From assembly GCA_000708835.1 (NCBI GenBank), contig DF237402.1:1-53582 (forward strand): 53,582 bases of DNA. Reading direction: 5' to 3'. The DNA is from Klebsormidium nitens (lineage: Eukaryota; Plantae; Klebsormidiophyceae). The notes below the pieces were generated by a model. The model was not told where the DNA came from. It saw only the letters and a list, made by a program, of their open reading frames with translations, and searched no databases. A program made the translations under genes and the position numbers. Of this stretch, positions 4,619 through 22,494 are shown one piece after another. Every line of letters starts with the position of its first letter. The first letter of the stretch is position 1.

Positions 4619-4999
4619 TTAAGTGTCTCTCCTGTTTTTGGTTTTAGGATAGAAAGTTAACCTCTTTAGGTGTCTCTCCTCTAGAACTTGAGCATGTAAA
4701 AACGATGAGTTGGCATGAATGGTAGGTACATCGAAGGAAAGAGGAGAGACTCTGATGCGTTGGTTCTCAGGCACCGGGTGAAGTAACGACGTGAGCCCCT
4801 TCAGCCGCCCGACCGACTCCGGCAGGCTCTCGAGTGCCACCCATTGACTAAGTTTAATGATCACAAGCCAACGGGGGTTATTCATAATGATTGGCTGCAG
4901 CTCTACCAAAGAGTGATACAATTGTACAACTGCGATAATAGTCGTTCTTGAATTGAAAACCAATCTTTCATAGTAAGTATGTAACAATTTTGCTGCCAC
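4619..4999 (-). pseudogene. Leucine-rich-repeat remnant
   Basis: Single plant/bacterial-type LRR unit LESLPESVGRLKGLTSL within otherwise unconvincing ORF sequence. Confidence 0.3.
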
Positions 5000-5775
5000 G
5001 CTCTACGAGAGTGGAAAATATGTCATCCCTTCTCAGAAGGTCTTCTGAATGTTGCTAAGCTGCGTGACCGTCTACTTCTGGAGAACCTCGTGCATAAGGA
5101 TGAGGTTGAACACATGACTTTCAAAGATACATACACCCGTGATGGGCGGATTGTGGACGAGCTTCCAGACGACGTCGAGATAGTGTCTGTGGAACAGGAG
5201 CTGAAGCGGGTATTCATTTGGCAACCCAGTAAAAGACATTCTGGTGGTGAGCGAGATGCTCCGGTGCAAAAACGGTGAGGCGCCAAAACGTCGTGCCCGT
5301 CCCGGACACCAAATCCCCCATGCGTAAATCCATCATTTATCAAAATGAAGTATTCCCAAATGGGAAAGTGGATTTACGCCTTCTCGCTTGACAAACGAGA
5401 GACCGCGAAGATGCAACAAGAGATGATTGCCACGGTTGGCTGGTACGACCCGAGAGGGTTCGTGGTCTGCCGCTTGAAGGGTTTGATTTGGATGGACGGC
5501 GGGGCTTTTCTCCCGAATAGAGACCCCGTGGATACAGACTGGCTGACGCCGTTTTAGGAAGCCACTGGCTTGACGCTCTCATACGAGCCGTTCACTCTGC
5601 CCCCTGCTGAAGTACGCGAATGTCTTTGACCATGCTCAAAAAGTTGCAGAACGGGATTGGAAAAAGGAGGAGGTGCAGTCTTGGCTCGAGATATGCTGCA
5701 AATATGGTGCAGAGATAGACTACTCCCCTTGAAGAAAGGTACTCGCACACACGCTTAGGGCCAACGGAGCACCGA

Positions 5776-6702
5776 ATGCCCTTCCATTCCGGAATGGCAG
5801 ACTTGGATCGATCCGACATGGAGCGCCCTGACGCTGAAGTGGGCGAGTGTGCGATCACAAACGTGGCACCCCCGCTCTTGCTGGAGCTTCTGCTCCACCA
5901 CTCGGACATCAGAGTGCCCGCCCTGACCGCGCTAGCATGCACCGCAACCGACTTCAGCGCGGCGGTGAACGAGCTTTGGCCTTCGATGATGGCAAAATTT
6001 TCGGAGAGCTGTCAGAATGAACCGACTACTCCCCTGACCGCGAGACAGATTCCGGTCGAAGCCTTTCGTAAAACTCCCCACCCGGCCAGCGCTTGCAGGG
6101 TTCGGGCGTTGACTAGACCGAGAGGCGAAGGCTTGAACTTGAGCTTCGAATTCGAGGAAGAAGGCTCAGAATGGACGCGCCAGGACGCTCTGATGACGGT
6201 GTATACTGCTCGCTACACGTATCGTCTCAGCACGGCAGACATTCGTCAACTCCAACCATACACAGGCATGTACAATGACAAGTACTACAGATTCGAAGAC
6301 GTTCTGGGGGCGGGCATGCTCCGATTCGGGCGACGGCCTTATCTGGAGCGCCTCCTCCGAAGACCGATCCGGGAGCATCCGCAGATCGAGAAGAGGAGCA
6401 CCGGCTGGAATCATGTGATGCGGTTGCACCAGAGGGTGGCCCCGGAAGTCATGCTCGACACGAGAACACTTCAAGCATATGCCGAGGAGTACATGAAGTC
6501 GGGCGTCGGGATCAATGTAATCAGGAGCCGTCTGTGGTCGCACAGATTCTTCTTGCAGCAGGTGTCTCAGCTGGTGCCCCATATGAACGTGGCCGAGCAG
6601 TCACGAGTTAAGCATCTCCAGAAAGCTTACGTCTTGACGAATGACTATGAGCTGGTCCGAGAAGCTACCAGGATAATGATAGCAATAACAGGACTTCACT
6701 GA
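5776..6702 (+). CDS. F-box-like protein with XPA-C-like helical domain, paralogue 1
   Basis: N-terminal PPLLLELLLHHSDIRVPALTALACTATDFSAAVNELW fits the F-box pattern; TARYTYRLSTADIRQL...YYRFEDVLGAGMLRFG resembles XPA-C-like folds; clear paralogue at 7247. Confidence 0.6.
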   Translation: MPFHSGMADLDRSDMERPDAEVGECAITNVAPPLLLELLLHHSDIRVPALTALACTATDFSAAVNELWPSMMAKFSESCQNEPTTPLTARQIPVEAFRKTPHPASACRVRALTRPRGEGLNLSFEFEEEGSEWTRQDALMTVYTARYTYRLSTADIRQLQPYTGMYNDKYYRFEDVLGAGMLRFGRRPYLERLLRRPIREHPQIEKRSTGWNHVMRLHQRVAPEVMLDTRTLQAYAEEYMKSGVGINVIRSRLWSHRFFLQQVSQLVPHMNVAEQSRVKHLQKAYVLTNDYELVREATRIMIAITGLH

Positions 6703-6748
6703 GGGCTGATGATCCTTGGGACGCGGCTACAACAATCAATTCGTTCTG

Positions 6749-7132
6749 ATGTCAACGATATCACCATGGGTAACGGCGCCCACGAACTTTGGCGCGGTCA
6801 GTGGAGCTCGGGCACGCGGGCACGTTAGCTTAGGAAGTACCGCATTCAAACAGCTCAACGCTATGAGGCACTCGTGTTCCTTTTCACAGAAGGGAAGGAT
6901 TTCTTCGGACTTGGCATGGTTGCTTGACCTTCCATCAAGTGTCCGCATCAGTCGGCCGCAACTGACTCGAATAATCGGAAATTGGCTCCGGGCAAACGAT
7001 TTGATAGAGAATCGTGTTCTAATATACGTAACCTACGACATGAGTTGCGTATTTGGAGCCGAAAATGGAAGTTTCATTTCTCACTTTGCACTACAATCGT
7101 TTCTACGATCACATTGGTACAAGACTGCATAA
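6749..7132 (+). CDS. SWIB/MDM2-domain protein
   Basis: ISSDLAWLLDLPSSVRISRPQLTRIIGNWLRANDL...YDMSCVFG...ISHFALQSFLRSH matches the SWIB consensus; stand-alone SWIB genes are common in NCLDVs. Confidence 0.75.
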   Translation: MSTISPWVTAPTNFGAVSGARARGHVSLGSTAFKQLNAMRHSCSFSQKGRISSDLAWLLDLPSSVRISRPQLTRIIGNWLRANDLIENRVLIYVTYDMSCVFGAENGSFISHFALQSFLRSHWYKTA

Positions 7133-7246
7133 GGCGGAGCCATCGGCTGCTTCCTTGGAACCACTACCTACCGGCAGCGGATTCTATACCGAATCACGTG
7201 AAGCAATAGTTATGTAAGCACCCCTTAAGGACAAAGGTCGGGCCAG

Positions 7247-8153
7247 ATGCCCCTTCATTCTAACATGGAGCCTGTCAGCAACCGCTCGAAAGAATGCGCA
7301 ATCGAAACTCTGGCAGCCTCCCACCTTTTGGAGCTGCTTGTCCATCATTCAGACATCCAAGTACCGTCTCTGACCGCCTTGGCATGCACAGCAAAAGCCT
7401 ACAACGAAGCGGTGGACCAGTTGTGGCCGTACCTCATGACCAAGTACGAGGCCGAGTGTGGGAGGGGCCCGGCCGCGGCACTGACGCCCAGGCATACGCC
7501 AGAAGAGGATGTTGAGAAGAATCTTGAGGATGGCTGTGAAGTTTTCGCCGAACGTATTCCGGGCGGCAAAGGCTTCAGACTGAAGTTCGAATTTGAGGAA
7601 GAAGGGAGCGACTGGACCCGGCAGGAAGCTCTAATGCCTTTAAAGACCGGAGCTCGCAAGGTATACCTGCTCACTGCTCCAGATCTCCGCCTCCTACAAC
7701 CGTTCATAGTTCCAGGTGCGAGACGAGATCCTCTTCTCCGTGGAAAGTTTTACAAATTCGAAGATGTTCTGGGGGCGGGCATGCTTCGGTACGATCGGAA
7801 ATCCTATGTAGACCGTCTCTTGAAGAGACCGATCCGGGACTGCACGCAGGCGGAGCTGAGGAGCGATCGGTGGGAAATGGTGAAATATCTCCCCATCGTG
7901 CATCCACCGATCCTACTCGAGCCTCCCTTGCTGAACAATTATGCGAGCAGTTATATCAGAACGGGGATCGGACTCAAGGAAGTGCAGCAACGTCTTTTTC
8001 TCACAGTACGTCAGCGCTCGTACGCACCAACACATGAACCACCCGGAGCAAGTAAGAGTGGCATACCTTCAGAAAGCATACGTTTGGACGCAAGAATTTC
8101 AGCTCGTCTCAGATGCGGTAGCAATCATTCGAGAGACGCGAGGAGTCTACTAA
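7247..8153 (+). pseudogene. F-box-like protein paralogue 2, frameshifted near 7995
   Basis: Shares FEFEEEGS.WTRQ.ALM and FEDVLGAGMLR with 5776-6702. The homologous C-terminus (FFSQYVS...HMNHPEQVRVAYLQKAYV) lies in another frame (7941-8153). Confidence 0.65.
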
Positions 8154-8982
8154 AGGACGTCGATCCTTGGGACTTTGAATGGGGCTGGCGATATTGCCAG
8201 AGGGGCAGGCACGTCCGTGTCTTCGACCGGTGAATAAGTCGTAGGGATCAAATATGTCTTGACGACAGCAGGAAGCACCCCACCGACGATCGGCCCTGCT
8301 ATGAACACCCAAATGTGCTTCCAAGCCTCCTTCGGCGCCGTCCCGATGCAGCGATCACAGCACCCAAGCTGCGTGCCGGATTAACGCTACATCCGTCGAT
8401 AGGGATCAGAGCAAGATGCGCCACTATAATCGCAGCGCCTACAGCCACATGTACCATGAGTCCCAGAACGTGTCGCCCGATGTCGTTCACAGGCAGAAGC
8501 CCTGTCACCTGCAGCACAAGTGTTACAAGGAGAGAGGTTGCAATTATTTCGGCTAAGAGAGCTTGCCACAGACCATATCCCGGCTGAACAAAGTTGACGG
8601 CCTGACTTGCGGCATAATGCTCATGATTCGAAACGGCCCGTGCAAGTAAAGCACCACACGTGGCTCCAACAACCTGTGCAACAATGTACACGACTCCCGT
8701 AAGTATGTCTACCGACCGTTGCACCATGAATGCAATAGTCACGGCTGGGTTGAGATGCGCGCCCGAAACATTTCCAAAGCAAAAGATCAGACCAGCTATG
8801 CTGGTCCCAAAGACTGTGGCTACTCCGATCGGTGCGGCTGCCGAACCATCGACTGAGCTTGGCCCATAATTCACAACGGTACACACTACTGGAAATAGAA
8901 AGTAAGCTGATCCCAAGCACTCTGCCCCAGCTGCATTGCAGAGCCTGAGCACCTTGTTGTTACGGCGGTCTGTGGAGGCCAT
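8150..8982 (-). CDS. Aquaporin (MIP), orthodox water-channel type; 1-nt frameshift near 8343
   Basis: SGAHLNPAVT and GCSVNPARSLG (two NPA boxes). Adding one G at the GGG run restores the sixth helix AWKHIWVFIAGPIVGGVL and a TAG stop at 8150-8152. Confidence 0.9.
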
Positions 8983-9033
8983 GTGGTAAGTTCGTCCCAG
9001 AAAACATTTGGCTTCAAAAGTCCACGCTTATTA

Positions 9034-9503
9034 CAGTTTTCGTCGAAAATGTCGCCTGAGATATGTAACGCTTGAAGATCTGAATGTGCGTTTAAAACCC
9101 CCTGAAAATTCTCAGAAGGTACTGTATGTTCTAATCATGAGCATCACTTGTTACCGACTGGAAGAGTGGCTAGTACTGTCCTAAGCGTGCCCCGTCAACA
9201 TACGGTATGAGACCTCCATCAAAAGGCCCATCTTTGAGCTTCCCTGAAGCGCGATTGCACGCTGTGCAATGTACCAGCGTCGCTTGGATTTGGGCTGGAG
9301 GTCTATGGCATGGCATAGGAGTATCAGTACTTGTCCACAAAAAGGAACAGTATTCTTCAGTACCAGTTACTCTGGTCAGGCTCTGCCTACCAAGGACGCT
9401 GGGCGGCTGAGGGATAGCCAGTTAACTCTGTTATTATTGCTAATTATCGCCTTTTCTTGTGGCCCCCGTTACATAATAGGGGCGACAGTTTGGGCGAAAA
9501 TGG
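9034..9503. mobile_element. MITE (TA-flanked, Tc1/mariner/Stowaway-like), copy 1
   Basis: 470 bp, near-identical to 41294-41764. Imperfect terminal inverted repeats (cagttttcgtcgaaaatgtcgcc...tatgtaacg versus cgttacata...ggcgacagtttgggcgaaaatgg); TA on both sides; non-coding. Confidence 0.85.
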
Positions 9504-9534
9504 TAATAAAAAAGGAGAGCCTATTGCAGATTCC

Positions 9535-10899
9535 ATGGCCCTCCATTGGAAGTTCAAATGGAAATCGGAGGCGGATGAGAAGACACAATTGAAAGCCCGT
9601 TGCCTGGATCTGGAACGGAAGCTCGCGCATGCTCAGATGACATTGGCGGTCGCACAAGAACAGGTCGCGGTGTCTGTCGGTTCCAAAGACGAATTCACGA
9701 AGCGGGTCGCTCAGCACATCAGGGTGCCGATGCACGGTATCATCCAGGTCTGCTCGTCGATCATTCAGGACCACGGGGTACTCGCCAGCACGTGCTCCAA
9801 GGTCGAGATCGTCTGCCTGACGAGCACCCAGGTGCTGAGCACTTTGAACGAGCTCCTGCAGATCAGTTCCACAGAGAACAGCAGAATGTGCACGGAAAAC
9901 GTCGCCTTCAACCCGCGGAAGCTGGTGGACGCGGTTCTCAAGCAGGTTGACCAGCAAGTCGAGAGCAAGAACGTACGAGTCGTCCAGCTGGTGGATGGGC
10001 GCACGCCCACCTCACTTGCTGGGGACATGTCCAGACTCCGGCAGGCTCTCGGGATCGTTCTCGAAGTGCTTCTGGATGCGGCACGGGACTCGGAGATGCT
10101 GGAAATCCGGGTGAAGCCGCTGCACGGCGACGATCCCCTCCTCGAGTCGATGATCTGCTCGAGCCGCTACATATCATGCCTCTACGAGCTGTGTCTGGCC
10201 CACCCAGCGGGAGAGGACAGTATCATGGTGAGGGTAGGGCGAGACCCTGACCGCGAAGACCCCCAGCTCATCGCCGTAGCCGGCAGGTTGGAGCTGATGG
10301 GCTGGCGGTTGATGCGCTCGGTCGACAGCAGGGCTTTTCAGATTATCGTCCACGTCAAGCGCGCTCTAGAGGGGAGCGGGGCCAGCCAGCGGTATAGCCT
10401 AAGTCGCGACGTGCTCCTCAAGGAACGCAAGCTGACCATCTTGCTCATGGAGGAGAATCCGATTTTCCGAAGCACGATCTGCCAGCAGCTTGGGCAGGAA
10501 GGGCACACCGTGGACGTCGTGCGCAACGAATCGGAGGTATGCAAGCTCGCTGAGGACGGTACGATACATTTGAACAGAGTACGGCTGCGTGCTGATCGAC
10601 ACTACCAGCGGGGCCAAGGACCTCCTCGACTGCATAAGGCAACGCGAAGACTGATGCGATGCAACAAGATGCCAGTGGTCCTGATGGTGGGTCACGGTTT
10701 CGAAGATTGGGAAGTGCGTTACAAGGAAGCGGGAATCGACACGTACCTCCTCAAGCCGTGCACGAGCGAAGTCCTCAAATCTCGCATAGGAGACGCCATC
10801 AGCGCCGCGACAGCCCTCGTCGACATCGAAGAATTGTCGGAGCAGAGTCTCTCGAACGAGAGCGTTCTGTCTCAGTCTGAGCTTCCACTGAAGCAGTAG
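9535..10899 (+). CDS. Degenerate hybrid histidine kinase-response regulator (soluble, no sensor domain)
   Basis: KDEFTKRVAQHIRVPMHGIIQ (H-box-like), AGDMSRLRQAL, receiver KLTILLMEENP...AGIDTYLLKP. The listed GTG start at 9457 lies inside the MITE, so ATG 9535 is preferred. Confidence 0.8.
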   Translation: MALHWKFKWKSEADEKTQLKARCLDLERKLAHAQMTLAVAQEQVAVSVGSKDEFTKRVAQHIRVPMHGIIQVCSSIIQDHGVLASTCSKVEIVCLTSTQVLSTLNELLQISSTENSRMCTENVAFNPRKLVDAVLKQVDQQVESKNVRVVQLVDGRTPTSLAGDMSRLRQALGIVLEVLLDAARDSEMLEIRVKPLHGDDPLLESMICSSRYISCLYELCLAHPAGEDSIMVRVGRDPDREDPQLIAVAGRLELMGWRLMRSVDSRAFQIIVHVKRALEGSGASQRYSLSRDVLLKERKLTILLMEENPIFRSTICQQLGQEGHTVDVVRNESEVCKLAEDGTIHLNRVRLRADRHYQRGQGPPRLHKATRRLMRCNKMPVVLMVGHGFEDWEVRYKEAGIDTYLLKPCTSEVLKSRIGDAISAATALVDIEELSEQSLSNESVLSQSELPLKQ

Positions 10900-11789
10900 C
10901 GCTCAATAGCGTTCTTAAAGAGTCCAAAATTAGTAGGGGCCCTGGCGACGTCGTCGACGACCTCGAAATCATCCTTGTCGGACATGAAAAAGGGGTAATT
11001 GAGAAGGTCTTGGATACAAGGGCGTTCGCTCTCGGGTTTGATGCAGTCGAGGATGAGGGACTTGAGATGCTTGTGCTTCACAAAGAGGAGTTCGTCGGGG
11101 GGCGTGAAATTCAGGATCTCCATGTAGAGTTGGCTGACCGTGCGAAAGCGCGTGTACGGCTTTCGGAGCGTGTACATCTTCAGCAAGGCCCTTCCAAAGG
11201 AATAGACGTCGGCCTTGTGGGTATACTTACCCTGAAGGCACTCGGGGCTCATGTATTCCGCCGTTCCCAGGACAGACAACGTTGTCCGTGACGAGCTCAG
11301 CACGGAGGCAAATTCTAGATCGCCCAATGCCACGTCGCCCGTGTAGTTGTTGACAAAGACGTTCGCACACTTCAGATCTCGGTGCGCAATGGGCATCGGC
11401 CTGTCGTGCAAGAAGCACAGGGCGTCGATGAGCTGCCGTCCCCACTTTCGGATGACGCTGATCTCCTGCTTGCCGTGCTTGCGGACGTACGCGTCGAGAG
11501 GAGAGCCATAGAGGTCGGTGATGATGATGAGATCCCGGCTGTTATCCACCCACGAACTCACCATCCGCACGATGTGGGGATGCGAAATCTCGGAAAGCAT
11601 CTGCACCTCACGGACAGCCCTCGAATTGGCTCCATAGCCAACCACCGCAGCGGGAACCTTGCACCACGCTACCTCGCAACCCTCCTGCCGGTCGAAGCCC
11701 TTGTACACCGTTTTCGAAGACCCGAAACCTATCGTCTCGTTGCTGCAAACGAACCGGCCCGTCAAGTCCTTCTTCAAGGCCTCCTGCAT
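10872..11789 (-). CDS. WNK: WNK-family Ser/Thr kinase, kinase domain only, copy 1
   Basis: GFGSSKTVYKGFD...EVAWC (Lys in the Gly-rich loop, Cys at the subdomain II Lys site), HRDLKCANVF, GDLE, GTAEYMSPE. Confidence 0.92.
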   Translation of the reverse strand: MQEALKKDLTGRFVCSNETIGFGSSKTVYKGFDRQEGCEVAWCKVPAAVVGYGANSRAVREVQMLSEISHPHIVRMVSSWVDNSRDLIIITDLYGSPLDAYVRKHGKQEISVIRKWGRQLIDALCFLHDRPMPIAHRDLKCANVFVNNYTGDVALGDLEFASVLSSSRTTLSVLGTAEYMSPECLQGKYTHKADVYSFGRALLKMYTLRKPYTRFRTVSQLYMEILNFTPPDELLFVKHKHLKSLILDCIKPESERPCIQDLLNYPFFMSDKDDFEVVDDVARAPTNFGLFKNAIERYCFSGSSD

Positions 11790-11870
11790 GGTCGCTCGCT
11801 ACGGTGTTCCAGGAAAACTTGCGTGCGTCAAATACTCTCGTAAATATACGTATTCCTACCTAGGGTAGAG

Positions 11871-13007
11871 ATGCTGGCAGCGCTAGATGTGTTCTCCGGG
11901 ATAGGCGGGTTTGCGAGAGCTCTGCAGGGGATCGCGACGATCAAAAGGTTCTGCGACATCGACTCAGCTGCACGGGCGTGCTTGCAGAAGAACATGGACA
12001 AAGGACTTTTAGAGAAGGCCGAGATCGAGACCGACATTCGACACTTGAAGGGGTCAAAAGATATCGACCTGATTGCTGCGGGCATTCCGTGCCTCGGATT
12101 CTCGCCACTGGGCCTTGAGCAAGGGAGGCTTCGAGCACGTCCGGACGAAGGTATTCTACGAGCTCCTCAGGGTGATCGACGAGTGCGAACCGAAGCTTCT
12201 CTTCCTGGAAAACGTACCGAATATAGTCCTGCATGGCATGCACACGGTGGTCGACGAACTGCATGACAGACGGGGGTACGATCTCTCGTGGGTCGTTTTG
12301 CCCGCCTACGCAGTGGGCGCTCACCACACAGGCCTACGGTGGTTCTGTCTCGCGAGGAAGCCCGGCCTCGACCTGAGTTGGGAAGGGTTGCGCTTCGTGC
12401 CACACCGTTTCGACACCGAGGACGCGCCACCCAGGGTGATCGGCCAGGAAGATCCGGGATGGGTAGAGAGGGCGAAGAGGTGCTTTCTCTTGGGGAACAG
12501 CATCGTGCCTTGCGTGGCCCGCCTTGCCTTCTTCCTGCTGGCCAGTGGCTTCAGGCAGGGTGATATATCCGCTCCCACACTGGTCATGGGTGAGCCGAAT
12601 CCAGCCCTGTGCACGGTCGTCGACGAAACTCACCCCGGTTTCTACTTTCCAAAGTGGGGAGGGGTCGACTCGTGCAGTGTTTACAGCATCCCGATTATGC
12701 ACTTCAAGCGGCCAGAGTTGCAGCTTCGGCTGCTCCAGAAACCCAAGCTCGAAGTCCTACTCACTGACAAGGTTACCTCCCCGGTCATCTATTCTCGATT
12801 CATGCGACTGTGGAGCACCCCGAGGTCGGGCTGGATGCGTGGGCTCCAGCCGCGTCCTAACCGACAGAAGTAGTCGTGACCTCCCGAACCAGGTGAAGTT
12901 TGAGGTAGGCACCCCAGACACAATTAGACATGGGCAGCTGAATCCCGATTCCAAGGGTTGAGATTGTACTGATGGGGTATCCCAAAGGATATACGTGCTT
13001 CAAGTAG
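11871..13007 (+). pseudogene. C5 cytosine DNA methyltransferase with about 3 frameshifts
   Basis: DVFSGIGGF (motif I), AGIPCLGFS (catalytic PC), FLENVPNI, RWFCLA, LLGNSIVP. The C-terminal LTDRSSRDLPNQVKFE...LNPD and VEIVLMGYPKGYT lie in shifted frames; stop at 13005-13007. Confidence 0.88.
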
Positions 13008-13068
13008 GTTATTGCGTGGGCCTCGGGTGCGGCGAGAGGACTGCAATTCTTCTCCTCGCAATAGATCA

Positions 13069-13449
13069 ATGGAGGCAGTCTCCACATCCATCAACAAAGC
13101 CAAGAGGGTGTTGCAGGTCAACATCGCTCCCCGATGCATCAAAGAAACCGGGCCCACCAGCTTTGCGGCAAAGCTTCGGAACGTTGCAGACGAGGCAAAG
13201 AGCTCGAAGTCGGCTGGTAAGGTCGACAGGGTGGTAGTCATAGTGGACGGCACGGGCGCGAGCGAGTGCGGGTCGGCTGCACTGAAGGCTCTCGGCCAGC
13301 TGTTCAGCCTCGAGGACTGCAGCCTCTTGGACGTGGTCAGTACGATCCTCCTGATCAACGCGGACGAGACGTTGAAGGCTGCCTGAGCGATCGCCAAGCT
13401 GGTCGAGCCGGCCAAGAAGTACGCCTCGCTCGGTCGGGTGCTCGAATGA
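13069..13449 (+). pseudogene. CRAL-TRIO/Sec14-like small protein with internal TGA at 13384
   Basis: VVVIVDGTG...ALKALGQLF...VSTILLINADETLKAA*AIAKLV resembles the CRAL-TRIO core (D..G...K.L...I.IINA....W.I.K) if TGA was TGG; the frame stays open to 13449. Confidence 0.5.
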
Positions 13450-13467
13450 GCCTATACTCGAGTGAGC

Positions 13468-13929
13468 CTACCAGAAGGGCATCAAAGTCCAGAAGAATGA
13501 TGGTGCTGTAGAGATCTCCTCTGTTTCGTCCCAGTTGAAGCTGGGTGACTGAAGCGACTCGACGAGTTCAAAAATGGCGTCCTCCTCCGTCCAATCCATT
13601 GGCAGACCCCGGTCGTCATACACTCGACCGTCCGGTGGTGCAGTGGATGTGGAGGAGATCTCCCGTTCGCTCGGGACAGCCCTGCATATTGGGCAATCTC
13701 GTTTCTTTTTCAGCCACTCTAGGATGCACGACCGGCAGAAGGCGTGCGAACAGCCCAGCATGAAGCGGTCCGGGACCTGAATCGCCACGAAGCATATGGG
13801 GCAGGTCTCTTCCTCGGGACCAGCCTCGGCGATCACGGGCTCGTTCGGCCTGTGATGTCTGCAATAGGTAAAGCCTCCTGCATGGTTTCGGCATGCTGTT
13901 CCTTGTTTCGTGAGGCCCTTGCATAGCAT
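13468..13929 (-). CDS. RING-finger (C3HC4) E3 ligase with N-terminal small Cys/His knuckle
   Basis: CPIC...CSHAFCRSC...CPICR; N-terminal CKGLTKQGTAC...YCRHH. Confidence 0.9.
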   Translation of the reverse strand: MLCKGLTKQGTACRNHAGGFTYCRHHRPNEPVIAEAGPEEETCPICFVAIQVPDRFMLGCSHAFCRSCILEWLKKKRDCPICRAVPSEREISSTSTAPPDGRVYDDRGLPMDWTEEDAIFELVESLQSPSFNWDETEEISTAPSFFWTLMPFW

Positions 13930-14025
13930 CTTTCATTATGTTTGTACGAGCAATTTTTGTGGCAGACATCTCTCGCACGAGATGTCTCGCAGCTCACTTT
14001 TTTTGTGGTCTTATCTCAGATCGAG

Positions 14026-14274
14026 ATGACGTTGCCCGGCATGAGTGACAGCAGGAGTTTTGGATTGTCACCCTTCCTGCCTCCCAGCGAGACGAATTGG
14101 AGGATCATGCGTGCATTTCAAGCAGGAGACGGAGCAATCTATCGAGAGCACATCAACCGCGATGGCTATGTCATCATCGAGTGGTCGAGATTCGAAAACA
14201 TTTCCAACCGGGACACCCTCTCCCAATGTATCGCAAAGGATGCCGGACCCTTCCTGCGCCCCTTCATGTCGTAA
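14026..14274 (+). CDS. Small hypothetical protein
   Basis: Fills the gap between RING and TFIIB in the compact viral block; no motif recognised. Confidence 0.35.
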   Translation: MTLPGMSDSRSFGLSPFLPPSETNWRIMRAFQAGDGAIYREHINRDGYVIIEWSRFENISNRDTLSQCIAKDAGPFLRPFMS

Positions 14275-14390
14275 GCGTGGCACTTTTGACGACCGGCGGC
14301 CAGCGCCGGCCATCCGTTAGTCTTGCGCTGCCAGCTTAACATTGGTACTTAAGGGTAAGAGTCGACAGAAACGTCATAACCATAACCACG

Positions 14391-15299
14391 ATGGCGAGCT
14401 GCAAGGACTGCGACGGCGGGCTAGCGGTGGACGTGCAGAGCGGCGAGCTGGCGTGCACGGAGTGCGGACTCGTACAGAGTGCGAAGCTGACGGTGGTGGA
14501 GTGCGGTCACCGCGACTTCTTCCACGAGGGAGGGCCCCTGGATGAACAGAGCGCCGCCGTGTCCTGGCTCTCCAGTGCGAGTGGGAACCTACCAGCGCTC
14601 TGCCAGCAGACGACCTCGACTGCACTCGACCGGGATCCCAGGGTCGGGCCGGAGCGCCGCAAGGCCGGAAGGAAGGTGTTAGAGGAGTTTGCACACGTCG
14701 AGAGAGTGGTCGAGCTCCTGGGCCTTCCGTCAGTCGTGGCGAGCACGGCGCATTCGTATCTGACCACGTGCCTTTCGAAAAGGTTCGAGCGGGGCAACAC
14801 AAGACAGGGGACGGTGATTGCATGCATCTTTCATGCCTGCCGTTCGCACGGTGCCCCCCGCACTGCTCGCGAGCTCTCCGCAGTGTCCGGAGTGCCCTCG
14901 AGCAACATCAAGCAGGCCTGCAAACGAACGTCCCTCTTCGTGGCGTCCCACTCTTCAACCGAAGGCCCAAAGGACATGAGGCCAGAGGACCTTCTCGCAC
15001 GCTGCTGTGCTGCGATCATGGACCGGAAGGATCAGAAAGAGGCCAGGAAGCTTCTCCTGGCCTGCAGACAGCGGTGCGCGGTCAGAGAGCGCCTGACTGT
15101 GCTTCAGGGCAAAACACCATCGACCGTAGCAGCCGTCATCATCTGGAAGGTGGCTCAGGAGCAGAGGCTTAGTGTCAGCAGGAAAGAGATAAGCATGGGC
15201 TGTGGCATAACCGTAGGAACCTTGGTGAAGGCAGAGCATGACTATGATGGGCAGGCAAAAGAGGTGAAGAGTTCACTGACGCTCGACCTCAATCTGTGA
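14391..15299 (+). CDS. TFIIB: Transcription initiation factor IIB, intronless
   Basis: N-terminal Zn ribbon CKDC...CTECG; two cyclin repeats with RGNTRQGTVIACIFHACR..PRTARELSAVS and GKTPSTVAAVIIW...SRKEISMGCGITVGTL. Confidence 0.9.
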   Translation: MASCKDCDGGLAVDVQSGELACTECGLVQSAKLTVVECGHRDFFHEGGPLDEQSAAVSWLSSASGNLPALCQQTTSTALDRDPRVGPERRKAGRKVLEEFAHVERVVELLGLPSVVASTAHSYLTTCLSKRFERGNTRQGTVIACIFHACRSHGAPRTARELSAVSGVPSSNIKQACKRTSLFVASHSSTEGPKDMRPEDLLARCCAAIMDRKDQKEARKLLLACRQRCAVRERLTVLQGKTPSTVAAVIIWKVAQEQRLSVSRKEISMGCGITVGTLVKAEHDYDGQAKEVKSSLTLDLNL

Positions 15300-15346
15300 C
15301 ACGGTCATTGAAAATAAAATGCACATGTTACATTACATCGTCGCGC

Positions 15347-15808
15347 ATGGATAACCACCAAATACTGTTGCTCGCGGCAGGATGCGTTCTGCTCTACTTC
15401 ATATGGTCGAATTGCTCAGAGGGATTCATTGATGAAGGCTTTAGATCAGCAAAGAGGGAGGTGAAACAGGCAGCAGGGGATGTCGAGCGTGTTGCCGGCA
15501 AGGCGGCCAGAGGGGTCGGTAAGGCAGGCAAAAGGGGCGCTAAAGGGGTAGGCAAGGTGGCCGGCAAGGTGGTGGGAGGGCATAAAAAGCGGGGTGACAT
15601 GACCGGATTGACATTCGTGTGTAAGGCTGTGGACTTTGGTAACATGGGAGGAGGGATGCGCGCGGGTGCGATGATTGGGCCGATGGCCCCCGGGCAGAAA
15701 GGCAAGGGAGGCGCAGGTAAAAATCGTAAAGGGCCCCGAAATAACCCGACTAAGGGGATGGTAGCCGAGCGAGGCTTAAAGCCTTCTAAGCGAAGGGGTA
15801 CGCGTTAA
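15347..15808 (+). CDS. Putative virion membrane protein (N-terminal TM, E-G-F motif, basic Gly/Lys-rich tail)
   Basis: MDNHQILLLAAGCVLLYFIW then SEGFIDEGF; TM followed by E-G-F is a recurrent signature of NCLDV small structural proteins. Confidence 0.55.
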   Translation: MDNHQILLLAAGCVLLYFIWSNCSEGFIDEGFRSAKREVKQAAGDVERVAGKAARGVGKAGKRGAKGVGKVAGKVVGGHKKRGDMTGLTFVCKAVDFGNMGGGMRAGAMIGPMAPGQKGKGGAGKNRKGPRNNPTKGMVAERGLKPSKRRGTR

Positions 15809-15849
15809 AGCGTTCCATTTCCTCTCACGATGGCCCTGAATAAGTCCTT

Positions 15850-16845
15850 TCAAATCCAACTGCTCAGGTCCTTGCAGTGGCCGGTACTACAGAAGCCGTA
15901 TCTAATGGTACCCTCCTTATACACGACATTGACGACTGGCACGTGAATGTCGCTATCGATTGCCCCATGCACGTACGTGGCCTTGGGTGTTGTCTGGATG
16001 CGAACCTCCGTCGTCTCGACCGGGAAGAGCTCCCGCCCCTTGTACATAATTGCCATCGTGGCCTTTCCCTCGAAATCCGGGAAGCCTTCGGCGGTCAGCT
16101 CGGCAAGAACACCGCCCTTGATCAGCGTGTGCCCCTCCTCCGACGCCTGCTCTGGCTTGCCAAAAGGGAGCAGGGTGAGGCTTGCCTCTCCGAAGCAGAA
16201 GCGGATCTCGAGACCCCGGGCAGCCTCGTCTGCTAGAGCCGTCACGAAAGCCGGGAACGGCTGGCCATAGTGGAGAGGCAGAAAAGCGATGTCCACGAAC
16301 GCGTCGTGAGCGGGGCGGTCGAAGTCAGCCAGTGCATTGCAGGCCGTGTGAAGCTCCCTCGCGATGCGTTCGAAGGAACGCCACACCTCAGCCAGCTTAG
16401 TCGCCCGACGCACGAGGTTGTCTCCGGTGTGCATACTATCCCCCAGCGGGCTGTCTCCATAGATCTCCTCGGCGCAGTAACCCAGGTTGTAGAGGTCTTG
16501 CACCTTGTCTACAAACTTGGTCCTTGTCTCGGATGCTGCCACAGTATGGGTGGCCGCAAGAACGCGCACCCATCCGTATACCTGTGCCACGTCTGCCATC
16601 AGGCTGGCAATCTCGTCACTATCATGAGCTTCCCTGAGCTTGGAGACTCGCCGCAGCGCCCAGGAAAAGTAGCGGAGGGCGTTCCCGAGGTCGCCAGCAT
16701 GATCACCTTTGCTGCCCAGCCGTTCAAAGCAGCTGTCCATTTCCAGGTCGAATGAAGCCGCCCCGCGGAGCAGCTCGAGAACTCGCATGGCTGCCATTCC
16801 TCGGTCGAAGGATGTCGGTTTGGGAGGTTTCTGAGAATGAAGCAT
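15850..16845 (-). CDS. Hypothetical protein (331 aa)
   Basis: Long ORF occupying the gap exactly, with protein-like composition; no family recognised. Confidence 0.55.
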   Translation of the reverse strand: MLHSQKPPKPTSFDRGMAAMRVLELLRGAASFDLEMDSCFERLGSKGDHAGDLGNALRYFSWALRRVSKLREAHDSDEIASLMADVAQVYGWVRVLAATHTVAASETRTKFVDKVQDLYNLGYCAEEIYGDSPLGDSMHTGDNLVRRATKLAEVWRSFERIARELHTACNALADFDRPAHDAFVDIAFLPLHYGQPFPAFVTALADEAARGLEIRFCFGEASLTLLPFGKPEQASEEGHTLIKGGVLAELTAEGFPDFEGKATMAIMYKGRELFPVETTEVRIQTTPKATYVHGAIDSDIHVPVVNVVYKEGTIRYGFCSTGHCKDLSSWI

Positions 16846-17167
16846 TTTGAAATGGACCCTGTCAAAGGGCTCACCTCACATGCGCCATCCTCTGCCACAC
16901 CCCAGCAGCAAAGCTTGCCACCTCACAAAGAGCAGCAAGAGTCTAGCAGGACATTCGTTGCCAAGGCATGCAAGAGGGCGCCACCCATGATTGGCTTAGG
17001 GGCTGCGGTGAGGGTTCATTTACAAAGTCCGATGCAAGCGCCCGACTTCCTCCTGGAGCCGCTCCTCCCCGGCGACATCTACCAAACAGGACGCAGCCAG
17101 ATCAGGATCTGCAGGGCAGCGGGAGGGTTTTTCACGCTCGATCGGGAGAGTGTTCGGGCGGAGACGT

Positions 17168-17995
17168 ATGGAGGACTACGACATGCCGCAGAACCAGGAG
17201 GGGAGGGACGTGGGAACGACGGAGACTGTCTACGGGGAGTGGACGAGGAAGTTGCACGGCTGGAGGCGCAACCAGCCACTACCAGAGTACGCAGGTCTGC
17301 TAGACAAGATGACAGAGTACTTCAAGCGCCACGCGTTCGCTCCAAACAACGAGCTGGAGGTGCGGCTGGGAAAAGTGCACGAGAAACCAAGGCGCTTCGA
17401 ACCGGGGGTGTCCGCGAACATGTTTCACAAGATCCTGGAGGGCCTCCGGAGCTATCAATCCTGGGAGGACGAGACGGTGACGAGACACACTGACTACCTC
17501 ACCGGCGAGAGGCGGCTGCGTGTTTACGAGGACCCGGGGATGCCACCTGAGCTAGTCGCCAAACGGTCTCTGGTCTCCTTGGATGTCGTCTCGATGGGGT
17601 CTCCGTTCGATTTCCGCTTCTCAATCGCAAAAGAGAAGGTCGTAGAGGCGACGGAGCAGGACATAACCAGCATCACGGCAAACGCCAAGCATATCCGGCA
17701 CAAGGAGCGCATGACCTTCGCCTACAAGGCATGGCTCTTTGACCTGACCATAGTGCGAAGCCAGAGTGGGGCCTCTTCGGTGCCGACAGACGACTGCTTC
17801 GACGACACGTCCGAGGAGAGGAACGGAGGGCGGGTCTACGAGGTGGAGATCGAGCTCCGAAATCTCGCGACCAAGGTCAAAAAGACGGCTTTCAACGCGA
17901 TGAGGCTCGCAGACTCCACCCTGATAAAGCTCTTTGATCTGATGAACTTTGTCGAAGAGGTGGATGTGGAAAAGCTCTCATTCCAACCTAGCTGA
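17168..17995 (+). CDS. CYTH-superfamily mRNA-capping RNA 5'-triphosphatase (stand-alone)
   Basis: NELEVRLG (motif A), RRLRV, DFRFSIAKE, RHKERMTF, WLFDLTIV, YEVEIEL (motif C). Confidence 0.85.
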   Translation: MEDYDMPQNQEGRDVGTTETVYGEWTRKLHGWRRNQPLPEYAGLLDKMTEYFKRHAFAPNNELEVRLGKVHEKPRRFEPGVSANMFHKILEGLRSYQSWEDETVTRHTDYLTGERRLRVYEDPGMPPELVAKRSLVSLDVVSMGSPFDFRFSIAKEKVVEATEQDITSITANAKHIRHKERMTFAYKAWLFDLTIVRSQSGASSVPTDDCFDDTSEERNGGRVYEVEIELRNLATKVKKTAFNAMRLADSTLIKLFDLMNFVEEVDVEKLSFQPS

Positions 17996-18023
17996 AAGTA
18001 AATCAGGCAAATAGCAGGGGTCT

Positions 18024-18962
18024 ATGTCTGCCAGCTGCCGGATCATAGATACCAGCCCGACCGGAAAGTATGTCAGGTATGCAGAGGTCATCGGCAGGGG
18101 CTCCTACAAAATCGTTCATAGAGGCTTCGACAGAGAAAGAGGGATCGAGGTCGCATGGAGCAAGATTGTACTGAGCAAATTAGAGGTGAATGACGATTTC
18201 CACGACCAGATTCAACGGGAGGTAGATCTCCTCAAAATCATTCGTTGCACCAGTGTGGTTGAGCTCTTTGACGCATGGTTCGATCCTGAACGAAACGAGT
18301 TCCATATCGCGACAGAGCTCTTTCTGAGTGGGAGCCTAAAGGACTATCTCAAACGCCACGGACACATTGCATTGCCTGTGGTCAAGAGATGGACGCGAGA
18401 CCTTCTGGAGGGCCTCGTCTACCTACATGAGCAAGAACCACCAATCGTCCATAGGGATGTCAAGTGCGACAATATTTTCATCAGAGGGGACGTTGGGCAG
18501 GTCAAGTTGGGCGACCTTGGCCTGTCCACCCTCAAGAACAGGTCTTCGATGAGCAGTGTCGTCGGGACGCCAGAGTTCATGGCTGAAGAGATGTTTAACT
18601 CCGAGTACGACAAGAGAGTTGATTGTTACTCCCTGGGGATGTGCGTGCTCGAGATGACGACCCTCGAATACCCGTTTGCAGAATGCAAGAATATTGCACA
18701 GGTCTACCGTAAAGTCATGGAACGAAAGCCCCCAGACTCCCTGCAGCGGATCAAGGAGCCAGAGTTGAAAACCTTCATAACGAGGTGCCTCGCCCGACGA
18801 AGCATCAGGCCCACCGCGAAAGAGCTCCTGAGCGACCCTCTGTTGAGCGATTGCAATGACCCCAGCCCTCTGCTCGCAGAGCACAAGGCGATCCTGATCA
18901 GAGTAGAGCCCATAGATACGACGGCACCAAAGATTCCGAGACTGCTATCCTGTTGCTTTTGA
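18024..18962 (+). CDS. WNK: WNK-family Ser/Thr kinase, copy 2
   Basis: GRGSYKIVHRGFD...IEVAWS, HRDVKCDNIFI, VKLGDLGL, SVVGTPEFMAEE, YPFAECKNIAQVYRKV. Confidence 0.93.
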   Translation: MSASCRIIDTSPTGKYVRYAEVIGRGSYKIVHRGFDRERGIEVAWSKIVLSKLEVNDDFHDQIQREVDLLKIIRCTSVVELFDAWFDPERNEFHIATELFLSGSLKDYLKRHGHIALPVVKRWTRDLLEGLVYLHEQEPPIVHRDVKCDNIFIRGDVGQVKLGDLGLSTLKNRSSMSSVVGTPEFMAEEMFNSEYDKRVDCYSLGMCVLEMTTLEYPFAECKNIAQVYRKVMERKPPDSLQRIKEPELKTFITRCLARRSIRPTAKELLSDPLLSDCNDPSPLLAEHKAILIRVEPIDTTAPKIPRLLSCCF

Positions 18963-18965
18963 AGC

Positions 18966-19460
18966 TCAGAAGAAGAAGCTGTTGTTGTTCTTGCAAGTCA
19001 GTTCTCGCCCTGCAGTGGCTGCGGTGATGTAGGGATTGGAGTAGATGGCGGACTCACCGACTCCCCCCTCCGAAGGCCGCAGCTCCCTACCGTAAATCGA
19101 GTGCATGGGCTCTTGCCATTGACCACAGCTAGCAACGGGTATCGTCGTGGTATCATACATCGGTTGGAAATCTGGGCCGTATCGGCTCGGAGGCTCGAGG
19201 AAATGGGGCTGCCTCCGGGAATACTCCATCAGCCGGGGCGGACCCCCACCCGTCATCGGAGGGGGGCGGTAGCGCTTGGCGGCATGCCTCCTCTGCAACT
19301 CGACATGAAGTGCCTCGGTCGACACCCCGTCGCAATAGCGGGTGATTCCATCTTTGTACATCAGAACCGTCAGCGTGAGCATGTGCATAAAGAGCAGAGA
19401 AACTATCAGAATCACGGTGGACCAAGAGATATCGTTCATCATCCTGCCCCTATATGACAC
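18966..19460 (-). CDS. Hypothetical protein with N-terminal TM helix and Pro-rich tail
   Basis: WSTVILIVSLLFMHMLTLTVLMY hydrophobic segment; tightly packed between WNK copy 2 and TBP. Confidence 0.5.
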   Translation of the reverse strand: MSYRGRMMNDISWSTVILIVSLLFMHMLTLTVLMYKDGITRYCDGVSTEALHVELQRRHAAKRYRPPPMTGGGPPRLMEYSRRQPHFLEPPSRYGPDFQPMYDTTTIPVASCGQWQEPMHSIYGRELRPSEGGVGESAIYSNPYITAATAGRELTCKNNNSFFF

Positions 19461-19477
19461 TCATGTGTATAATTTTT

Positions 19478-20395
19478 TCAACGCTCGACCACCTGAAAGG
19501 TGGGGAGCTCGGTCGCTCTCTCGTCCATCTTATCCTCGATCAGCTCCAAAAACGAGCGCTTTCCTACTCGCGACCGCTCCTTCTTGGCGTTGTCTTCCTC
19601 CCACGCCGGAGTGCGCCCCTGACTGTTTAGGACGGTTGGGCTCTCCGTGACGGCCCCGATGACGAAAGCAAACGCTTGGGCGATGTCTTCCATCCGCTTC
19701 GCACCCGTTACGATGACGCTCTCGCTCTTGAAAGCCAGGACGGTGGCGCTAGCGAACTTGATGTTGCAGCCGGGGAAGTGGTCGGGTTCGTAGCGGCAAT
19801 AGACGCCATATTTTCCCGTGATCGTGTCCCGGAGTGCCTCCAGGTTGATGGGAGTGTTGAGACGAAAGTCCGTGTTGATCATCTGAATCTTTGCTGACTG
19901 GACCTTGACCGGCCTTTCCACCTGCGTACAGTCCGGACGGAGGGCCCTGATCGTCCGGATGACTACCTTGAGCGTGCCAATTGCCTCTCCGGCACTTCTC
20001 GCACCAGTCAGGTGGAACTTTCCGTTGGCAAACACCTTGCAGTTCTTTCTGGTGGTGCCGACCTTGCCGGGCGTGTAGCGGAAAGACACCTGGTTGGTGA
20101 ACTTTGCCTGCTTGGAGGCCGTGGCAATCAGGGAGATCGACCCGAGAGCGGGTTCCGCTGGGACCCGGTCCGTGACCAACGAGGCCTCTTGCAACATCTT
20201 GATGTCGATCTTGCAGTCCGTTTGGAAGATGACCGTCAGGGTAGATACGTCCGGGACGCTGGCAGGCGGGCCGTCGAGGCCCTTCCTCTGCAGGGTGCCG
20301 CTCATGGCTGCAGATGCGGCCCTGACGTCCCCCTTCCAAGACTCTATGAAGCTCTTGATCGCCGCCGACCTTGTGTCCAAGACGGGACCCTCCAT
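19478..20395 (-). CDS. TBP: Divergent TATA-binding protein (viral type)
   Basis: Two TBP repeats: FTNQVSF...CKVFANGKFHLTGAR and IQMINTDF...INLEAL...RYEPDHFPG...VLAFKSESVIVTGAK. Confidence 0.85.
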   Translation of the reverse strand: MEGPVLDTRSAAIKSFIESWKGDVRAASAAMSGTLQRKGLDGPPASVPDVSTLTVIFQTDCKIDIKMLQEASLVTDRVPAEPALGSISLIATASKQAKFTNQVSFRYTPGKVGTTRKNCKVFANGKFHLTGARSAGEAIGTLKVVIRTIRALRPDCTQVERPVKVQSAKIQMINTDFRLNTPINLEALRDTITGKYGVYCRYEPDHFPGCNIKFASATVLAFKSESVIVTGAKRMEDIAQAFAFVIGAVTESPTVLNSQGRTPAWEEDNAKKERSRVGKRSFLELIEDKMDERATELPTFQVVER

Positions 20396-20449
20396 TGCCT
20401 AACCCTCTCAGTCCTTAAGCCCCTTTTTTCAGAGAGTACTGAAAGAAGA

Positions 20450-20818
20450 ATGAACACAGTTCACTGGCTCCTCGCCGGCGCCCTCCTCGCCCTCGCAATC
20501 CTTGCCCTGCACTCACTACAGATCTCTCCTGCTCGGTACTCGTTCACGTTTTACCACCTCCCCGGTTGCAAGTACTGCGAGGAGGCCATGCCTGCATGGA
20601 GGGAGCTGCAGAGGATCTACTGGGGCCCGGCCGTCCTCAGAAAGGTGAACGCAATGCGAGCAAAAGAGGAAGTGAACGGCCTGGGAATAGATGGCCTTTC
20701 CGCGTATGTTCTGTTCGACGGCAACACGGGATTCGCCTACAAGTACGAGGGGGCCAGGACAGCTCAAGCGTTTTCACGATTCTTGGCAGAGACGTTTACC
20801 GAAAAAAAGCGCAGGTAA
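20450..20818 (+). CDS. Thioredoxin-like protein with N-terminal membrane anchor
   Basis: WLLAGALLALAILAL, FYHLPGCKYC (CxxC), YEGARTAQAF; the true start is the internal ATG of ORF 20012-20818. Confidence 0.8.
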   Translation: MNTVHWLLAGALLALAILALHSLQISPARYSFTFYHLPGCKYCEEAMPAWRELQRIYWGPAVLRKVNAMRAKEEVNGLGIDGLSAYVLFDGNTGFAYKYEGARTAQAFSRFLAETFTEKKRR

Positions 20819-20827
20819 AGTAGGATC

Positions 20828-21375
20828 ATGGTCACGCTCTTGGAAGGTGCTGCAGTGGCTGGCTCTTCGCTTTTTCTCTATCTCGCCCTCAAGCCCGAGG
20901 TGGCAAAAAGCAGGACCGGCATGGCCTACATCAAGGGCCCCCACGCCCAAGAGTTCATGAACGTGGTGAATACAGACATCGACCGTTTGTTGGCTTGGCT
21001 GAAGAGTCACCCCGAACTGCTAGCGGATCCCAGGTGGAAAGGCTGGTCCAGAGGTACAAGACCAAGATGCAGCCGATCGCAGAAGGAGAGGGAGGGGCGG
21101 CTTACACTCGAAACAAGTCGGACGTGCGGCTGTGCGTCCCAGAGTCCCTCGAGGAACGAGACGTCCAGACCGGCCTCTTTGTCGCACTCCACGAGCTGGC
21201 TCACATAGCAAACGTGAGCTGGGGCCACGACCAAAGCTTCTGGGACACGTTCAGAGACCTTCTCAGACTGGCTGTGAAAGCGAGGATCTATAAGAAGCGC
21301 AACTATAAGCACGACCCAGCACGCTTCTGCGGTCAGGATATAATGAGCCAACCTCTGGACTGGAAAACTCCTTAA
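20828..21375 (+). CDS. WLM-type zinc metallopeptidase of NCLDVs; 1-nt frameshift near 21037
   Basis: AYTRNKSDVRLC...FVALHELAH...GHDQSFWDTFRDLL...YKHDPARFCG; N-terminal TM half in the adjacent frame. Confidence 0.85.
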
Positions 21376-21443
21376 GTACCCTTAACGATCGCCAATGAGC
21401 GCCACACTGGTGCCAGCATGCGCCCCCTCCTGCCTCGGATGTA

Positions 21444-21782
21444 CTATGCCAGCGGCCGTCTGATTGTTTGCTGTCTTTGATTGGTGATGTACAGGCAGAC
21501 GTTTCCTTTGTTGGTGAGGACATAACTCTCGCTCCACAACAAGATGAAATTGTTCCCGTGGCGAGCGGCATCAGCTGTGGTGGCCGCATACCTGAGCACG
21601 TAGCTATCAGGAATCTTCTGCAATTCTTTCTCGTTTGCGTCAAGGAAGAATAGCCTGGCGACACTTCCATCGAGCCTCTCTAGCTTGATTTTCCAGCCAT
21701 CGTTGAGATCGAAGATGCGAATCTTGTCCCGCCCGTAAGAGAATAGTTCGTCACGGTGCAACGCCATAGACGTATCTGTCAT
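21444..21782 (-). CDS. Hypothetical protein
   Basis: Fills the gap between convergent/divergent viral genes; no motif recognised. Confidence 0.45.
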   Translation of the reverse strand: MTDTSMALHRDELFSYGRDKIRIFDLNDGWKIKLERLDGSVARLFFLDANEKELQKIPDSYVLRYAATTADAARHGNNFILLWSESYVLTNKGNVCLYITNQRQQTIRRPLA

Positions 21783-21960
21783 CTCGAGGCCTTATTGTAT
21801 TTGGCAGAATCGGTGGATAAACTAGACGCGGTCGTTCATGGCAACATCAGTGGCACTGGCAAAGTCCGGGGTGGGCAATTGCGGACGATGGTGCTCGTTT
21901 TCGAGCTTAGGGAGATTGCATATGAAGAGAAGCAAGCACATGGCAGTAGCATCCATCGGC

Positions 21961-22494
21961 ATGCACATGAACCCACGAGTCGTACGGCTTCTCGAGCGAC
22001 AGAGATACAAGACCCCTTACCAGCAGCACCTCGCAAATTTTGCACCAGGGGGGCGTGGACTGACACCTCGCCCGGTCCCAAACATAGAGGCAGCCCGTCA
22101 CGGTCTGCTCTACGAGAAGGAGGCAATACAGAGGTTCCAGGAAATCACGGGCATCCGGGTTCTTGATGTCGGCCATGTGGTCCACGAGCGCTTTGACTGG
22201 CTCTCTTGTGTCCCAGACGGGATAACCGTCGATGGAAGGGTGGCCGAGATAAAGTGCCCTTACTACCGGCGGATCGTTCCAGGGGTCCCCAATCACTGCG
22301 TAAAACAACTGCAGATTGCAATGGAGGTCACCGACCTCGACGAGGCCATCCTCGTGCAGTACAAACCCGCAAGCGTCTTCGGAGTGGAAGAGATCATGAT
22401 ATCGACCCTGGCCCGAGATAGGACCTGGATCCACAGGAACTGGTCTCGACTGCACAAGAAAGGGCAGTGGCTGCAGCCTCCAGCCGCGGCCTGA
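21961..22494 (+). CDS. YqaJ/lambda-exonuclease family recombinase
   Basis: AARHGLLYEKEA, WLSCVPDG, EIKCPY, QLQIAMEVTDLD, VQYKP; the N-terminal QRSxEW/LTAS region appears degenerate. Confidence 0.85.
   Translation: MHMNPRVVRLLERQRYKTPYQQHLANFAPGGRGLTPRPVPNIEAARHGLLYEKEAIQRFQEITGIRVLDVGHVVHERFDWLSCVPDGITVDGRVAEIKCPYYRRIVPGVPNHCVKQLQIAMEVTDLDEAILVQYKPASVFGVEEIMISTLARDRTWIHRNWSRLHKKGQWLQPPAAA

Follow-up and report, generated by a model that had tools for sequence, protein, structure and literature searches.

Introduction

Hybrid histidine kinases (HKs) are encoded by the phaeovirus EsV-1, according to passages in two reports (PMC12993054, PMC6324907), and HK-like and Ypd1 genes have been described in Mycodnavirales (PMC13524828), in the main text of which neither 'WNK' nor 'aquaporin' occurs. 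The genome of the terrestrial alga Klebsormidium nitens (K. flaccidum) carries several divergent Phycodnaviridae-like inserts, whose gene order is highly rearranged as described in the Klebsormidium passages of PMC5294986. Viral histidine kinases, a viral aquaglyceroporin and Klebsormidium inserts are already known. Here we analyzed a stretch of 53,582 nucleotides of K. nitens (contig DF237402.1 of assembly GCA_000708835.1, positions 1 to 53,582; hereafter, the window), in which an aquaporin gene, an HK-like gene and a WNK-like kinase gene (WNK-A) are consecutive. An earlier note, made from the letters of this DNA, had described them as three adjacent intronless genes within a block typical of nucleocytoplasmic large DNA viruses (NCLDVs), which our analysis bears out, and had proposed that they form a water and osmotic signalling module. 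We give about an even chance to another reading, namely that the block is a decaying giant-virus segment, and that its conserved unit is a pair, formed by a dead, sensor-less pseudo-HK and a WNK, that interferes with host signalling.

Results

The HK-like gene encodes a sensor-less pseudokinase

The HK-like open reading frame (ORF) matched the Pfam domain Response_reg with 30.6 bits and HisKA with 17 bits, the latter under the 26.9 cut-off, and no HATPase_c domain was found in it. When the family was aligned to a canonical hybrid kinase, the H-box His was present in 0 of the 11 rows that cover the column, all of which have Gln, Asp, Glu or Asn there, and none of 13 rows showed the N-box Asn or the DxGxG or GxGLG motifs of the G1 and G2 boxes. 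In the receiver domain, the phospho-Asp was kept in 10 of 11 relatives and the Lys in 10 of 11 rows; the switch Thr was found in 0 of 12 rows (Val or Leu in 12/12), and the Asp segment of the window copy is out of frame. No sensor or membrane segment was detected, with maximal 19-residue hydropathy values of 1.1 to 1.65 across 7 proteins. The relatives share the same start point. The possibility that the reading frames ahead of the gene encode a sensor of the ethylene-receptor or MASE1 type was rejected, because no Pfam match was obtained and the DNA there is a miniature inverted-repeat transposable element (MITE). The HK-like gene is a sensor-less pseudokinase.

Its descent from a DHp-CA-REC protein is supported by a profile match to GacS (E 4e-17) and by Foldseek matches to ShkA and GacS, the latter obtained with a low-confidence model (mean predicted local distance difference test, pLDDT, of 55) that shows an N-terminal helix followed by a DHp, an alpha/beta core and a receiver. 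Overall, the profile and fold matches comprised the HK cores of GacS, RetS, ShkA and DivL-type proteins. The earlier label of hybrid histidine kinase is thus right as to fold ancestry and wrong as to activity: the phospho-His, the ATP boxes and the sensor are gone, so the protein cannot work like the osmosensors Sln1 or AHK1, with which it had been compared.

The pseudo-HK family recovered by word and profile searches is small. Its members remain full length and retain 33-40% identity across lineages, which suggests selection on a non-catalytic role. No match to it was found in the phage collection. In a quick tree of 75 rows, 11 family rows formed one clade (99 in the Shimodaira-Hasegawa-like approximate likelihood ratio test, SH-aLRT), sister to P0308, a protein of 740 residues that is 28% identical to the pseudo-HK and combines a MASE1 domain with the same His-less core and the same receiver signature. 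Since P0308 has MASE1 yet the same dead core, catalysis was probably lost before the sensor. An atlas look-up of P0308 returned bacterial clusters only, mostly of HK or receiver proteins. P0308 and P0449 (Logan contigs, 4753 bp and 4087 bp) are both membrane pseudokinases with MASE1, a His-less pseudo-HK and a receiver. The family also includes some proteins that are annotated in K. nitens as 'histidine kinases', such as GAQ89737. In the NCBI model of the window gene (KFL_004530015, 612 aa, P0001), the first ~156 residues come from an unrelated ORF at 7247, fused to the pseudo-HK across the aquaporin; this fusion looks like a gene-prediction artefact.

WNK-A belongs to a separate clade with a substituted chloride pocket

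The best PDB match of WNK-A was WNK1 (E 7e-55). The hallmarks of WNKs, a catalytic Lys in beta2 and a non-Lys residue in beta3, are present in WNK-A (GFGSSKTV and EVAWC) and in a second kinase of the block, WNK-B (GRGSYKIV and EVAWS), whose start at 18024 had been given correctly before. WNK-A retains the activation-loop Ser and, together with 20 relatives (21 rows), forms a clade (100/99) apart from the cellular WNKs. A metagenome scan yielded largely generic kinases, the best of the matches listed having 37% identity. The NCBI model of the WNK (P0145, 220 aa) is truncated.

The chloride pocket of WNK consists of Phe283, Leu299, Leu369, Gly370 and Leu371, and L369F/L371F is chloride-insensitive according to passages in PMC7606576. 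At these positions WNK-A has Met, Ile, Leu, Glu and Phe, and WNK-B has Leu, Ile, Leu, Gly and Leu. Phe or Tyr occupies the Leu371 position in 21/21 WNK-A rows, whereas Leu is found in all 11 of the remaining WNK-like rows in which the motif is present; Glu at the Gly370 position is shared by the window WNK-A and two relatives. On this comparison, we predict that chloride inhibition of WNK-A is reduced. The identification as a WNK kinase thus holds for the hallmarks, and fails for the chloride pocket of WNK-A.

The pseudo-HK and WNK-A genes share contig sizes in divergent relatives

To score co-location in relatives we used exactly equal size, in bp, of the protein-bearing contigs of at least 10 kb, which is a proxy and not a comparison of DNA. 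By this measure, HK and WNK-A relatives shared six contig sizes (12721, 15240, 21489, 25319, 26980 and 115524), which amount to 6 of the 9 HK contigs and 6 of the 11 WNK contigs. The aquaporin, in contrast, joined HK or WNK on 1 of 18 contigs (21489 only). The earlier note had named a lack of linkage in related viruses as grounds for abandoning its module; with shared contigs of 1/18 versus 6/9, such a lack of linkage is largely what was found for the aquaporin, but not for the HK and WNK genes. The six contigs correspond to three lineages: the window's own (21489 and 12721), one with 37% HK identity (26980, 25319 and 15240) and one 115-kb contig. The pair-bearing lineages are only 37% (HK) and ~50% (WNK) identical. 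At the DNA level, the HK-WNK junction was crossed by near-identical contigs in X5 and X9, so that adjacency of this kind was seen in near-identical copies only.

The pairing could also reflect plain synteny, in which three viral genes are useful independently, and the pseudo-HK and WNK-A genes stay together through their convergent, tail-to-tail overlap of 28 bp and little local rearrangement. This is a real possibility, although an unlikely one. It would account for the overlap and for the 3 of 9 HK and 5 of 11 WNK contigs without a listed partner; however, gene order is highly rearranged in the K. nitens inserts described in PMC5294986, and yet the pair co-occurs at the low identities given above.

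Several points weigh against a conserved pair that interferes with host signalling. Equal contig size is not adjacency, and tight linkage (12-27 kb) is seen in two lineages only, the 115-kb contig having little bearing on adjacency. The convergent overlap could keep gene order without any shared function. The absence of the aquaporin from HK contigs is weak evidence, because some clusters were unexpanded and the protein collection lacks broken genes; the window's own aquaporin, itself broken, was missed in this way and has no 100% match there. The relatives are presumed to be viral, and HK, aquaporin, WNK and mRNA triphosphatase had no close locus in IMG/VR; P0308 itself could be of host or viral nature, and the trees left out the host Klebsormidium HK, WNK and PIP sequences. 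Leu369, the best-tested residue of the chloride pocket, is retained in 19 of 21 WNK-A rows, hence chloride insensitivity of WNK-A is only a prediction. Finally, the interference that we consider likely is argued from sequence comparison and analogy.

A possible mechanism for the pseudo-HK and WNK pair

In the reading of an interfering pair, the pseudo-HK would have been derived from a MASE1-bearing pseudo-HK via loss of the membrane sensor. With the DHp and the receiver kept in the absence of catalysis or sensor, it would most plausibly act by binding. Its DHp may pair with hybrid kinases of the host, in the way that RetS pairs with GacS; alternatively, the protein may hold phospho-partners, as DivL does. 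The receiver, in which Asp and Lys are kept and the switch Thr is lost, might also serve as a phosphate sink. WNK-A would be catalytically active and less inhibited by chloride, and would provide unregulated output rather than act as a sensor. Host targets exist for such a pseudo-HK, since passages of PMC6324907 report 67 predicted HKs in K. nitens, and HKs are coupled to Ser/Thr kinases in the osmotic signalling of streptophytes, as stated in part of a preprint (bioRxiv 10.64898/2026.05.21.726866). The accession terms looked for in one text supplement of PMC6324907 were not present there.

A broader and rather doubtful extension is that giant viruses of terrestrial streptophyte algae carry host stress-signalling parts stripped of their sensors, so that a His-less HK jams the phosphorelay and scaffolds a chloride-blind WNK, with a PIP-type channel as effector in some lineages. 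If true, a jammed phosphorelay and a chloride-blind WNK would amount to a viral override of algal osmotic signalling, with a previously undescribed viral WNK family.

The aquaporin is likely a separately acquired water channel

The aquaporin matched Pfam MIP with 143 bits, and two NPA motifs are present in the window copy. The aromatic/arginine (ar/R) filter is F-H-C/T-R in 18/18 aquaporin rows, and the nearest solved structures are plant plasma-membrane aquaporins (spinach, E 8e-31, versus GlpF, E 3e-11). In a careful tree of 46 rows, in which the labels 'viral' and 'plantPIP' were inferred by the analyst, the 18 rows formed a clade (100/99) within a green-plant PIP-related group (97/93). This tree replaced an earlier one of 128 rows that was run in quick mode only, and the rows P0032 and P0039, which are partial, were omitted. 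In IMG/VR only distant MIPs were found, on 7 contigs (L001-L007) and with 25-33% identity.

Differences between the aquaporin ORF and its relatives fall at third codon positions in 22 of the 31 listed (p 2e-5; taken from the best-supported 40 of 273 differences), which indicates that the gene was under selection. The GC content at third codon positions (GC3) is 0.49, the lowest of the 11 block genes measured, eight of the other ten having 0.65-0.78. The window copy is frameshifted near 8341-8371, before the sixth transmembrane helix (TM6): tblastn of the intact relatives P0023 and P0272 falls in two frames. The call of an aquaporin was therefore sound as to the MIP family and a water-type channel, but the six intact helices are found in the relatives and not in the window. 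The aquaporin is likely a water-selective channel and a separately acquired neighbour, judging from these comparisons. It could matter for swelling or lysis, and would not be wired to the pseudo-HK and WNK pair.

In the integrated osmotic module that had been proposed, the HK and WNK would act as sensors of water or chloride stress that control the aquaporin. We consider this improbable. All three families have osmotic roles in cells, HKs take part in algal osmotic signalling according to part of the preprint cited above, the channel is of the water type, one relative contig size (21489) is common to the three genes, and without the MITE the aquaporin and HK genes would start ~75 bp apart, head to head. 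However, the HK lacks a sensor, the His and the ATP boxes, the chloride pocket of WNK-A is altered, and the aquaporin shares 1/18 long contigs, its closest relatives (P0031 and P0272) being on contigs without a listed HK or WNK. A three-part osmosensing module is thus not borne out.

A MITE and lesions in the window copy

The HK and WNK-A genes are convergent, and the aquaporin and HK genes are divergent, separated by 552 bp that are mostly MITE. The inverted repeat arms of the MITE lie at 9028-9070 and 9467-9509, and its read depth is 189-211, compared with 11-15 nearby (runs X1/X3). A second copy at 41287-41771 has 97.7% identity, which suggests recent MITE activity. One X7 contig that matches 8795-9078 extends 50 bp into the MITE, and no joint crossing the MITE was seen among the relatives' matches listed.

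The HK receiver carries two compensating frameshifts (indels), near 10571 and 10646. Contigs of X5 and X7 have neither indel, and X8 lacks the second. X1 contigs over 6309-9066 and 9482-12872 match the window with 0 differences and 0 gaps; the aquaporin and receiver lesions are therefore real DNA rather than assembly errors. X1 is possibly the same strain as the window, and it was counted only for the reality of the lesions, not as independent support elsewhere. The window copy of the gene set is decaying and probably non-functional.

The genes lie in an endogenous block of viral type

The three genes are accompanied by TFIIB, TBP, TFIIS, a stand-alone mRNA triphosphatase, a YqaJ exonuclease, a C5 methylase, a thioredoxin and a RING protein, all intronless, a gene set that we take to be typical of phycodnavirus-like genomes. 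Such a dense run of intronless viral-type genes within a eukaryotic contig is one feature of an endogenous NCLDV element. In run X5 the depth is ~11-43x over the block, and falls to 2.9x at 5164-5827 and to 2.1x at 23756-24400; one X6 contig begins at 5754 and another matches 23764-24153 and then diverges. The limits given in Table 1 fit these edges. Capsid, polymerase (PolB), packaging-ATPase (A32) and VLTF3 hallmarks were not found among the 60 + 52 window ORFs scanned; NCLDV hallmark genes are known from other K. nitens contigs, as described in passages of PMC5294986. The HK-like ORF and the WNK-A kinase have 100% matches among NCBI K. nitens proteins. Further members of the three families (GAQ89737, GAQ93551, GAQ92164, GAQ91923, GAQ90274, GAQ93600 and GAQ93147) lie on other K. 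nitens scaffolds, so several inserts likely carry these families.

It is very improbable that the genes are host retrocopies that landed in the insert after endogenisation, as could be argued from the nesting of the aquaporin clade among green-plant PIP-related sequences, the poor sampling of host proteins and the fact that some relatives are annotated K. nitens proteins, because stem branches of 0.7-1.3 part each family from the cellular rows, the identity of the relatives ranges from 35 to 84% and metagenome annotations call them at full length, as would be expected of intronless genes, and the GC3 of HK (0.74) and WNK-A (0.75) matches that of TFIIB, TBP and TFIIS (0.73-0.78). In line with the earlier proposal of a viral origin, the genes seem to have been carried by the virus and not copied recently from the host, each being in a well-supported clade of its own.

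Table 1. Position of the features discussed in the text, in window coordinates
Feature	Position	Strand	Characteristics
Endogenous NCLDV-type block	~5750-24150 (limits approximate)	.	Dense intronless genes; read-depth and contig edges
Aquaporin, C-terminal part (TM6 and tail), other frame	8150..8371	-	MIP 199-221 match; tblastn of relatives
Aquaporin, main frame (TM1 to second NPA)	8299..8982	-	NPA/NPA; ar/R filter F-H-C-R; PIP-related; Pfam MIP
Host MITE	9029..9508 (~480 bp)	.	43-nt imperfect terminal inverted repeats; likely TA target duplication; between aquaporin and HK
Soluble pseudo hybrid HK	9535..10899	+	Coiled coil, DHp without His, degenerate ATPase fold and an atypical receiver with its beta3 segment out of frame (~10571-10646)
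WNK-like kinase A	10872..11789	-	Kinase domain only; beta2 Lys, beta3 Cys, HRD kept; DLEF replaces DLGL
WNK-like kinase B	18024..18962	+	36% identical to A; canonical DLGL; outside A clade

Other features were noted along the window. The ORFs at 5719-6702 and 7247-8233 are paralogous (73-76% DNA identity in stretches) and have no Pfam match; a frameshift is likely in the second of them near 7994, a point at which contigs of X5 and X6 have 14 extra bases. The C5 cytosine DNA methylase (11871-12873) is split in two frames, and a gene for a WLM-like metallopeptidase (20824-21372) is apparently split near 21039. At the right edge of the block, an ORF on the minus strand (23338-24144), assigned to no family, has repeats rich in Cys and Pro and, after them, a helical region rich in Ala. 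A ~40-nt unit at 4790-4830, probably a host repeat, recurs in many X1, X3, X5 and X6 contigs, with variable letters between some copies.

Comparison with known systems

A literature search, mostly without subscription papers, revealed no phycodnavirus WNK, no conserved family of viral pseudo-HKs, no clade of viral WNKs with a naturally substituted chloride pocket and no viral water channel related to PIPs; within that search, these are new. The intact natural homologues make two questions testable: the viral manipulation of two-component signalling in an alga closely related to land plants, and the role of the Leu371 position. WNK-A has carried Phe at this position for a long time, and provides a natural case for the role of that residue in WNK.

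Like the cellular WNKs (WNK1 and the plant WNKs), WNK-A has the Lys in beta2, Cys in beta3 (Ser in WNK-B), HRD and the activation-loop Ser; unlike them, it is a kinase domain only, in a separate clade and with substitutions at the Phe283, Leu299 and Leu371 positions. The chlorovirus AQPV1 (passages of PMC6163359) is likewise a virus-encoded MIP channel, but it is an aquaglyceroporin, whereas the K. nitens aquaporin has the water-type F-H-C/T-R filter, PIP matches and a green-plant PIP-related grouping. The Phycodnaviridae-like inserts of PMC5294986 are in the same genome and have captured plant-like genes (expansin and cyclin), but no aquaporin, HK or WNK is mentioned in the Klebsormidium passages of that report.

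The HKs of EsV-1 (PMC12993054, PMC6324907) and the HK-like and Ypd1 proteins of Mycodnavirales (PMC13524828) resemble the Klebsormidium family in being two-component parts of giant viruses with algal or fungal hosts, for which cue sensing or host interference has been proposed. In the passages available they are described as sensory kinases, whereas the Klebsormidium family has no His, ATP boxes or sensor and is paired with a WNK; EsV-1 is set apart here by its description and not by its sequence. Passages on the MASE1-domain HKs of early land plants (PMC6324907) offer a further likeness, as the nearest outside relative of the pseudo-HK, P0308, carries MASE1, but P0308 is itself His-less. The closest parallels in mode of action may be the pseudo-HK DivL (PMC4211667) and the inhibition of GacS by RetS (PMC8498467), both of which were among the sequence or fold matches and, in the passages cited, are HK folds that act by binding. 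They are bacterial, bear sensors and are not orthologous to the Klebsormidium pseudo-HK, so that they serve as an analogy only.

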